A stretch of 64,000 nt of DNA from Octopus sinensis (lineage: Eukaryota). Shown piece by piece: positions 16,894 through 16,952 of the stretch. Every line of letters begins with the position of its first letter. The stretch's first letter is position 1. A model generated the notes under the pieces. It did no database searches and was not told the origin of the DNA. It was given only the letters and a program-made list of their open reading frames with translations. The stretch lies in the NCBI RefSeq assembly GCF_006345805.1, contig NC_043001.1:6262001-6326000 (forward strand). The letters run 5' to 3'. A program made the translations under genes and the position numbers.

Positions 16894-16952
16894 TTCGTGT
16901 CTTGTCCCTACCTTCGAAACACGGAGTAGATAACACAGGGGACAACTGATGA
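16894..16952 (+). ncRNA. Candidate rearranged (non-circularly permuted) hammerhead
   Basis: UUCGUGU-C-UUGUCCCU-accuuc-GAA-ACACGGA-12 nt-GGGGACAA-CUGAUGA; stem III 7 bp, stem I 8 bp. Confidence 0.65.

Follow-up and report, generated by a model that had tools for sequence, protein, structure and literature searches.

Eckert et al. (2023, PMC10085705) divided the hammerhead ribozyme into three blocks, S, G and C, which were taken as uninterruptible, and RNAs in the non-circular orders SGC and CSG, with an additional helix (helix b) and a short linker between stems I and II, cleave in vitro. Type SGC is known from metatranscriptomes only and CSG from two unique soil-metagenome sequences, neither of them being placed in a known organism (PMC10085705). 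Naiads, which belong to the Penelope-like elements (PLEs), were reported to be without a canonical hammerhead, eight of them being flagged 'HHR_half_core' (Craig et al. 2021, PMC8557442). Here, we describe a repeat in a stretch of 64,000 nt of the Octopus sinensis genome (NC_043001.1, positions 6,262,001-6,326,000 of the forward strand; 'the window', from whose start all positions are counted), which carries the strands of a hammerhead in the order S, G, C and in which block C appears to be split by two further helices. With a probability of roughly 0.8, we consider this locus to be a decayed repeat without an open reading frame (ORF), likely a non-autonomous PLE of the Naiad type, whose RNA is predicted to form a rearranged and likely self-cleaving hammerhead.

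The core of the window copy, numbered by analogy with other hammerheads, lies on the plus strand and is complete (C3 U4 G5 A6 N7 G8 A9, G12 A13 A14, A15.1-U16.1 and H17). Block S (16894..16901) holds the 5' strand of stem III, with U16.1 at 16900 and C17 at 16901, after which the cut is predicted, and is followed by the stem I strand 3' of that cut (16902..16909). Block G (16911..16925) comprises the 3' strand of stem II (C11.1 at 16915), the GAAA at 16916-16919 and the 3' strand of stem III up to 16925. Behind it, the 3' strand of helix b (16931-16938) leads directly into the other stem I strand (16939-16945; the two together at 16931..16945) and the intact CUGAUGA (C3-A9, 16946..16952), giving the 5'-3' block order S, G, C. 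A prediction made earlier from the letters of the window (the original prediction) had proposed a non-circularly permuted hammerhead core in strands 16894-16901, 16902-16909, 16916-16925, 16938-16945 and 16946-16952; all five lie at these coordinates, the 7-bp stem III and the 8-bp stem I that it described are exact in the window copy, and the order that it recognized is the SGC order of Eckert et al. (2023, PMC10085705). Stems I of at least 8 bp and III of at least 7 bp around an intact core arose by chance twice in 60 dinucleotide-shuffled windows (both strands) when any order was allowed, and never in the S-G-C order; the recurrence of the motif is stronger evidence than these counts that it is real. 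Rfam scans gave no hammerhead match at E<=10 in the window between 14000 and 20000 or in positions 2810-2960 of locus L317, and none of 14 loci scanned reached the gathering score for a hammerhead.

The locus belongs to repeat family A, which is one of six in this genome (A, D, F, B, N and E) that keep the core and helices I, II, III and b while their sequences differ. A descriptor demanding a contiguous stem II missed the window motif, and an upstream partner for stem II was therefore sought. Pairing analysis places it on the plus strand at 16875..16879, in a strand that begins with G10.1 and pairs with 16911-16915 at four of five positions here and at all five in the family majority, whereas a downstream partner would give the window copy no pairs at an insertion of 0-1 bases and a single pair at an insertion of 2. 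The poorly paired stem II of the original prediction is thus correct for the downstream partner that it assumed (0-1 pairs) and wrong for the upstream strand; stem II had been misplaced, and helices b, IV and V had been overlooked. A pattern search built to avoid family A (17 matches versus 6 in controls) revealed other repeat families, and across the family majorities an upstream strand starting in G offers 5-7 bp to the strand before GAAA, compared with 0-4 bp downstream (family D being mixed with A). When the partner was left unconstrained, the upstream G-initiated strand was the best one in 19/19 instances, two further copies without a descriptor match having been dropped. In family B the bases 3' of A9 are unable to pair with C11.1 at all, and downstream pairing of stem II amounts to 0-1 bp in 10/11 metagenome loci (see below) and to 0 in families B and E. 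From these pairings, block C is read as split, with CUGANGA separated from its stem II strand. The 5' strand of helix b (16881..16888, plus strand; placed by pairing analysis and by comparison with PMC10085705) lies just behind the upstream stem II strand and pairs with the strand preceding stem I, with seven of eight pairs to 16931-16938 left in the window copy. Helix b measures 6-12 bp in all 11 metagenome loci, and in nine of the 11 it exceeds shuffles (p<=0.024), although the descriptor does not demand it. The stem I-II linker is 1-7 nt long (mostly 2-4).

The four bases directly behind A9 (16953..16956, plus strand), at the place where stem II would be expected, belong to another helix. 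They are the 3' strand of helix IV, whose 5' strand lies in the 5' leader at 16833..16836 (plus strand; two of four pairs here, four of four in the family majority), and the gap up to G10.1 is occupied by hairpin V (16837..16874, plus strand; 16837-16843 with 16868-16874, five of seven pairs here), the 3' end of which is flush with G10.1. The junction of IV and V is flush on all three sides in 11/16 families and loci. When tails were swapped between them, the number of Watson-Crick pairs fell from 68 for own tails to 30.0 +/- 5.4, with a maximum of 48 in 1000 swaps (family F dropped out of this test and locus L326 was missed by the script). We picture helices IV and V as stacked on each other, which would keep A9 beside G10.1. 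In the PLE hammerheads of PMC4209133, one extra nucleotide is conserved at the same 9/10.1 step, and the insertions in hammerhead cores in PMC3088659 are of 1-2 nt. By eye, the validated SGC-3 oligonucleotides also carry an extra base at this step (PMC10085705 supplement). No report of helices inserted between A9 and G10.1 was found in the literature, and a prokaryotic precedent may exist. Hammerhead variants with additional helices were reportedly described by Weinberg in 2015.

Pairing is kept, and covaries, among the copies of this genome. Of the 37 pairs predicted for the six helices, the family A majority can make every one, and all 13 core positions that were scored are intact in 17 of 54 copies of this family. 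In an alignment of nine real copies of families A, D and F, 90.3% of cells were paired, compared with 39-50% in slid controls, and ten pairs had changed on both sides (three in stem II, one in helix b, two in stem III, four in stem I and none in IV or V), a result that none of 500 shuffles equalled; as the three families are related, this count reflects few independent events. All 16 families and loci tallied retain the bases of the catalytic core, G10.1-C11.1, A15.1-U16.1 and a base other than G at position 17, partly because the descriptor requires them. The homologues thus keep the core and stems I and III across six families, and their consensus has a stem II, with double changes in stems I, II and III of the A/D/F alignment, all of which favours the original prediction. 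Stem III is 4-7 bp long and non-palindromic in most families, and all strands lie within ~125 nt, so no multimer is needed; of the pseudoknots or multimeric assembly expected in the original prediction, two pseudoknots are predicted.

With type SGC (PMC10085705), the locus has in common the S-G-C order, the short I-II linker and a helix that connects stems I and II on their other sides. Type SGC has an uninterrupted block C, in which stem II begins at most 1-2 nt after CUGANGA, whereas here the block is split at A9/G10.1; in contrast to both SGC and CSG, two added helices (IV and V) close the break and thousands of copies sit in animal retroelements. Set against the published rearranged hammerheads, the order and helix b therefore match and the integrity of block C does not (PMC10085705). 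Judged by its pairing, the RNA appears to work like an SGC or CSG hammerhead while falling outside type SGC as defined, and its six-helix topology appears to be new. The minimal type I PLE hammerheads and the retrozymes without long terminal repeats (non-LTR retrozymes; PMC4209133; bioRxiv 10.64898/2026.07.22.740005) resemble it in having one hammerhead per PLE-related tandem unit, in keeping G10.1-C11.1 and in tolerating an insertion at 9/10.1, and ORF-less head-to-tail units with one hammerhead each are common to non-LTR retrozymes and family A. Minimal type I PLE hammerheads, however, have the order CGS and a rudimentary, palindromic stem III, and need a dimer, whereas here the order is II-b-S-G-C, stem III has 4-7 bp and one unit holds all strands. 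The discontinuous Clec2 hammerhead (PMC6765202) is likewise a natural hammerhead assembled across an interruption, but there the interruption is an insertion of several hundred bases, and here it is a step of the core backbone, with two local helices and a non-circular order. Finally, Naiad PLEs (PMC8557442) and family A share insertion into TA repeats, partial tandems and inverted truncated pieces, and differ in that Naiads bear ORFs and family A does not. The rearranged hammerhead in Xenopus PLE-related repeats that the original prediction named as a precedent found no counterpart: in the literature searched, no rearranged hammerhead was reported in Naiads, cephalopods or Xenopus, and the sole non-circular precedent found was that of Eckert et al. 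(2023), which is metatranscriptomic and metagenomic.

The layout is linked to Naiad ORFs in metagenomes, in the octopus genome and in published consensi. Among the best 80 of 471 metagenomic Naiad-like reverse transcriptase (RT) loci (54 clusters), a descriptor of four blocks, allowed in any order, found the split form at 13 (11 distinct), in sense and 116-1230 nt behind the RT match. The antisense strand of the same 80 loci gave no split-form match, the scan revealed no other hammerhead order, nor did a relaxed scan of the 67 motif-negative tails, and shuffles of the same 262 kb gave one split-form match in 40. An RT tree built from 40 of the 80 loci plus a single own-genome piece (41 rows) places the motif in two distant lineages, next to sisters without it, and requires five changes for it. 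Viral contigs yielded no Naiad relative, and the split form was matched in none of 120 viral control loci, which had been picked with a pattern that itself prescribes part of the motif.

In the octopus genome, the pattern of family N has 346 matches (13 in the control), and RT remnants with a weak RVT_1 match lie upstream of its motif. Seen from the RT side, the family N motif is found downstream, in sense, of ten of 20 Naiad RT remnants fetched from 125 matches. A word-based protein search with the own-genome RT piece returned no match; an HMMER library search did find relatives, and an N-terminal GIY-YIG domain is present in three of eight full-length homologues scanned. The published 3' ends of Naiad_Obim and Naiad_Ovul show the split layout, and family N is, by eye, near-identical to both. 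Published ends were compared by eye in part of the 54 records of the supplement of Craig et al. (2021), several of which are named by file order only. Ten of these consensi, from four phyla, have the split form (Bfor, Chem-3, Movir-2, Amil, Aacu, Anas, Plae, Obim, Ovul and Esco, the last with an imperfect stem II), and seven, mostly from nematodes, have an intact CSG form (Ppac, Parc, Nbra-1 to -3, Hpol and the arthropod record before Naiad_Lpol, which has one extra base after A9). Five of the eight 'HHR_half_core' Naiads fit one form or the other by eye, two of them named by file order. Three Darwinula 3' ends and the ends of Chem1, Chem4, Adux and Tama, in the parts seen, did not fit by eye. 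The split fold is thus likely to be the missing, putatively self-cutting RNA of Naiads in several animal phyla, and family A is likely a non-autonomous Naiad-type PLE.

By eye, the published CSG-1 has the same architecture as the nematode Naiad motifs, and the soil-derived CSG-1 and CSG-2 share with them both architecture and I-II linker (PMC10085705 supplement); the soil CSG sequences may come from Naiads of soil animals. Again by eye, SGC-3 is similar to families N and E in its stems II and III. About 14 other metagenomic Naiad tails (L328-L330, L335, L342, L346, L354, L355, L358, L359, L362, L390, L392 and L394) carry a motif that we take to resemble the twister ribozyme (15 regular-expression matches, one of them spurious by eye, and none in antisense), with a palindromic AAAC..GUUU segment before UAA and only a weak Rfam alignment, to Twister-P5 (E 9.5). 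Since some of these tails are tree sisters of hammerhead-bearing Naiads, the pattern suggests that Naiads may swap the hammerhead for a twister-like ribozyme. Taken together, we find it quite probable that Naiads across phyla are the natural home of non-circular hammerheads: of the intact CSG form in nematodes and an arthropod, and of the hitherto undescribed split form, with its core opened at A9/G10.1 and held by a four-way crossover, in cephalopods and cnidarians as well as in a ctenophore and an acanthocephalan. The genome studied here would hold tens of thousands of copies of the split form, which Naiads would swap for a twister-like ribozyme.

In the proposed model, the RNA would run from the 5' strand of helix IV through hairpin V, the 5' strand of stem II (G10.1), helix b, stem III with the cut site, stem I, the linker, the 3' strand of stem II with GAAA and stem III, the second strand of b and stem I with CUGANGA to the 3' strand of helix IV. 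Helices b and III would form a nested hairpin, and its loop would find partners in both flanks, 5' for stem II and 3' for stem I, creating two pseudoknots, and a flush crossover into helices IV and V would take the place of the A9-G10.1 bond. The resulting ring of strands would be identical to that of the published SGC and CSG types, with its opening moved elsewhere, and standard hammerhead chemistry would cut it after H17. One cut per unit, near the 3' end of the element, would release monomers from read-through or tandem transcripts, possibly with the aid of a Naiad protein, and the released RNA would be copied into TA repeats by the Naiad RT/GIY-YIG protein. Catalysis, the three-dimensional junction, the role in transposition and the parentage of family A are the conjectural parts of this model, whose observed basis is the sequence, its recurrence, the covariation of pairs and the association of the layout with Naiad ORFs.

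The same strands could be read in other ways. They might form a plain type-SGC hammerhead in which the bases behind CUGAUGA make up a stem II that is simply weak; the block order fits SGC (PMC10085705), and family A can reach three pairs downstream if two bases are inserted, D and F as many as four. Yet families B and E and 7/11 metagenome loci have no downstream pair, the upstream strand offers 5-7 bp and begins with G10.1 in 19/19 instances, and it is to the 5' leader that the bases after A9 pair, all of which makes this reading very improbable. The chance that a permissive descriptor, run on repeats, produced the pairings as an artefact is slighter still, and this reading is largely refuted by the controls: 13 real matches stand against one in 40 shuffles and none in antisense, their place behind Naiad ORFs is fixed, helices b, IV and V appear without being demanded, and the 120 viral loci, chosen by a pattern fixing part of the motif, gave no match. 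A third possibility, which we regard as unlikely, is that the fold exists but has ceased to be an independent catalyst. It would then be a cis-element derived from a hammerhead, with the task of binding the Naiad RT or of fixing where reverse transcription begins, and its cutting would be weak or dependent on protein. The hammerhead of the PLE Poseidon of Anolis cut only with protein, and its cleavage was dispensable for insertion in vitro (PMC11167929), minimal PLE hammerheads are poor at cleavage (PMC4209133), family A has a competing fold and the 5' ends of its partial tandems do not cluster at the predicted cut site; however, the core bases, G10.1-C11.1, A15.1-U16.1 and non-G at 17 persist in 16/16 (partly as a descriptor requirement), and sister Naiads bear an intact CSG or twister-like motif at the same place, as would be expected if cleavage is needed.

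Several observations weigh against a split, self-cleaving Naiad hammerhead, which remains our preferred reading. Double changes are absent from helices IV and V in the A/D/F alignment, helix IV is weak in family E (two pairs), a closing helix without the flush-hairpin constraint exceeds shuffles in just 1/19, and no tested precedent was found for a backbone break at A9/G10.1. Helix b is not above shuffles in 6/8 own-genome copies, double changes within family A (27 observed versus 17.8 expected) are not convincing, and the minimum-energy fold of the family A majority, computed free of pseudoknots, holds a competing hairpin that buries GAAA. As for the link to Naiads, 67/80 metagenomic loci are without the motif, which is thus not universal (23/80 have tails of less than 400 nt), and a family A copy lies in sense at none of the 20 Naiad RT loci and in antisense at one, with no ORF-bearing parent found. 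The protein dependence of the Anolis Poseidon hammerhead, and its dispensability for insertion in vitro (PMC11167929), also count here.

If the preferred reading is true, no natural hammerhead that is active with a broken block C would be known before this one. It would address the puzzle of how Naiads proliferate without the hammerhead of other Penelope-like elements, and would provide the rare non-circular permutations, hitherto orphans of environmental RNA and DNA, with a host and a likely function. The assumption that the three hammerhead blocks cannot be interrupted (PMC10085705) would break, and descriptor searches would consequently have missed a set of ribozymes in animal genomes. A monomeric hammerhead whose ends lie in a new helix would also be a new scaffold for RNA engineering and structure work.

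The family A copy itself extends over 16484..17141 (plus strand, BLAST extent against other copies) and is 5'-truncated and ORF-less, with partial tandems and a TA-rich end. There were 3305 first-look candidates for further copies, of which 40 were scored and are 82-85% identical (the window itself excepted). Family A copies have a common 3' end and variable 5' truncation points, and the longer ones are head-to-tail partial tandems, some with inverted 5'-truncated pieces, inserted in TA repeats; these are Penelope-like signatures as in PMC8557442, and the TA-flanked retro-repeat of the original prediction is borne out by them. The unit is ~745 bp long (725-761 bp at 16 loci with a tandem junction, two of which are the same place and three others near-identical) and contains one hammerhead and no stop-free stretch longer than 120 codons. 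No clustering at the predicted cut site is seen among the 5' ends of partial tandems. In 400 kb sampled at round-number positions, a strict scan for intact motifs gave no match, and BLAST of the same sample found six decayed copies of the layout families, none of which passed the strict scan; six copies in 400 kb suggest that the whole genome holds tens of thousands.

In the window copy, the core is kept and the private changes fall in helices II, b, IV and V (4/5, 7/8, 2/4 and 5/7 pairs left, respectively). The predicted energy of the nested part is -1.8 kcal/mol, compared with -24.6 kcal/mol for the family A majority. Because of these lost pairs, the window copy is probably decayed and inactive despite its core. 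Family A sequence also occurs in contigs from four runs (coded as four organisms; 313, 14, 1307 and 5 pieces), and these pieces mostly show pairing letters at the positions mismatched in the window copy.

Two further copies of the layout were placed in the window by pairing and copy comparison. A decayed family B copy (17135..17243, minus strand) stands tail to tail with the family A copy, with G12 at 17168, the core at 17148-17142 and G8 changed. A copy of family E, a younger family (its top 40 copies are 95-97% alike), lies at 8951..9390 on the minus strand, with C3 at 9062, G12 at 9090 and U16.1 at 9108. Adjoining it, at 9770-9900 on the minus strand, lies what by eye is a PLE hammerhead of the ordinary minimal type I (CUGAAGA, hairpin, GAAAC and palindromic stem III). 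Loci L053, L056, L057 and L060 belong to another high-copy repeat with GAAA before CUGAAGA, which the pattern built to avoid family A also matched.

Among other tails, the published 3' ends of the Skow and Pfla Naiads and the tail of L386 share a third common 3'-end motif. The 120 viral control loci (L131-L250) gave 13 matches to a type II (GSC) descriptor. In L332 and L333, ~100-330 nt behind the RT match, there is a different conserved, structured-looking motif with no Rfam match at E<=0.05, a candidate for a further ribozyme. Selenocysteine insertion sequence (SECIS) elements lie behind Naiad ORFs at L336:1987-2048, L394:3720-3786 and L358:3095-3159, one of them above the Rfam gathering score, and extend the Naiad selenoproteins already reported. 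In the tails of L343 and L387, a Naiad-like ORF is followed by, or fused to, a sequence that by eye we take to resemble a ubiquitin-specific protease domain.
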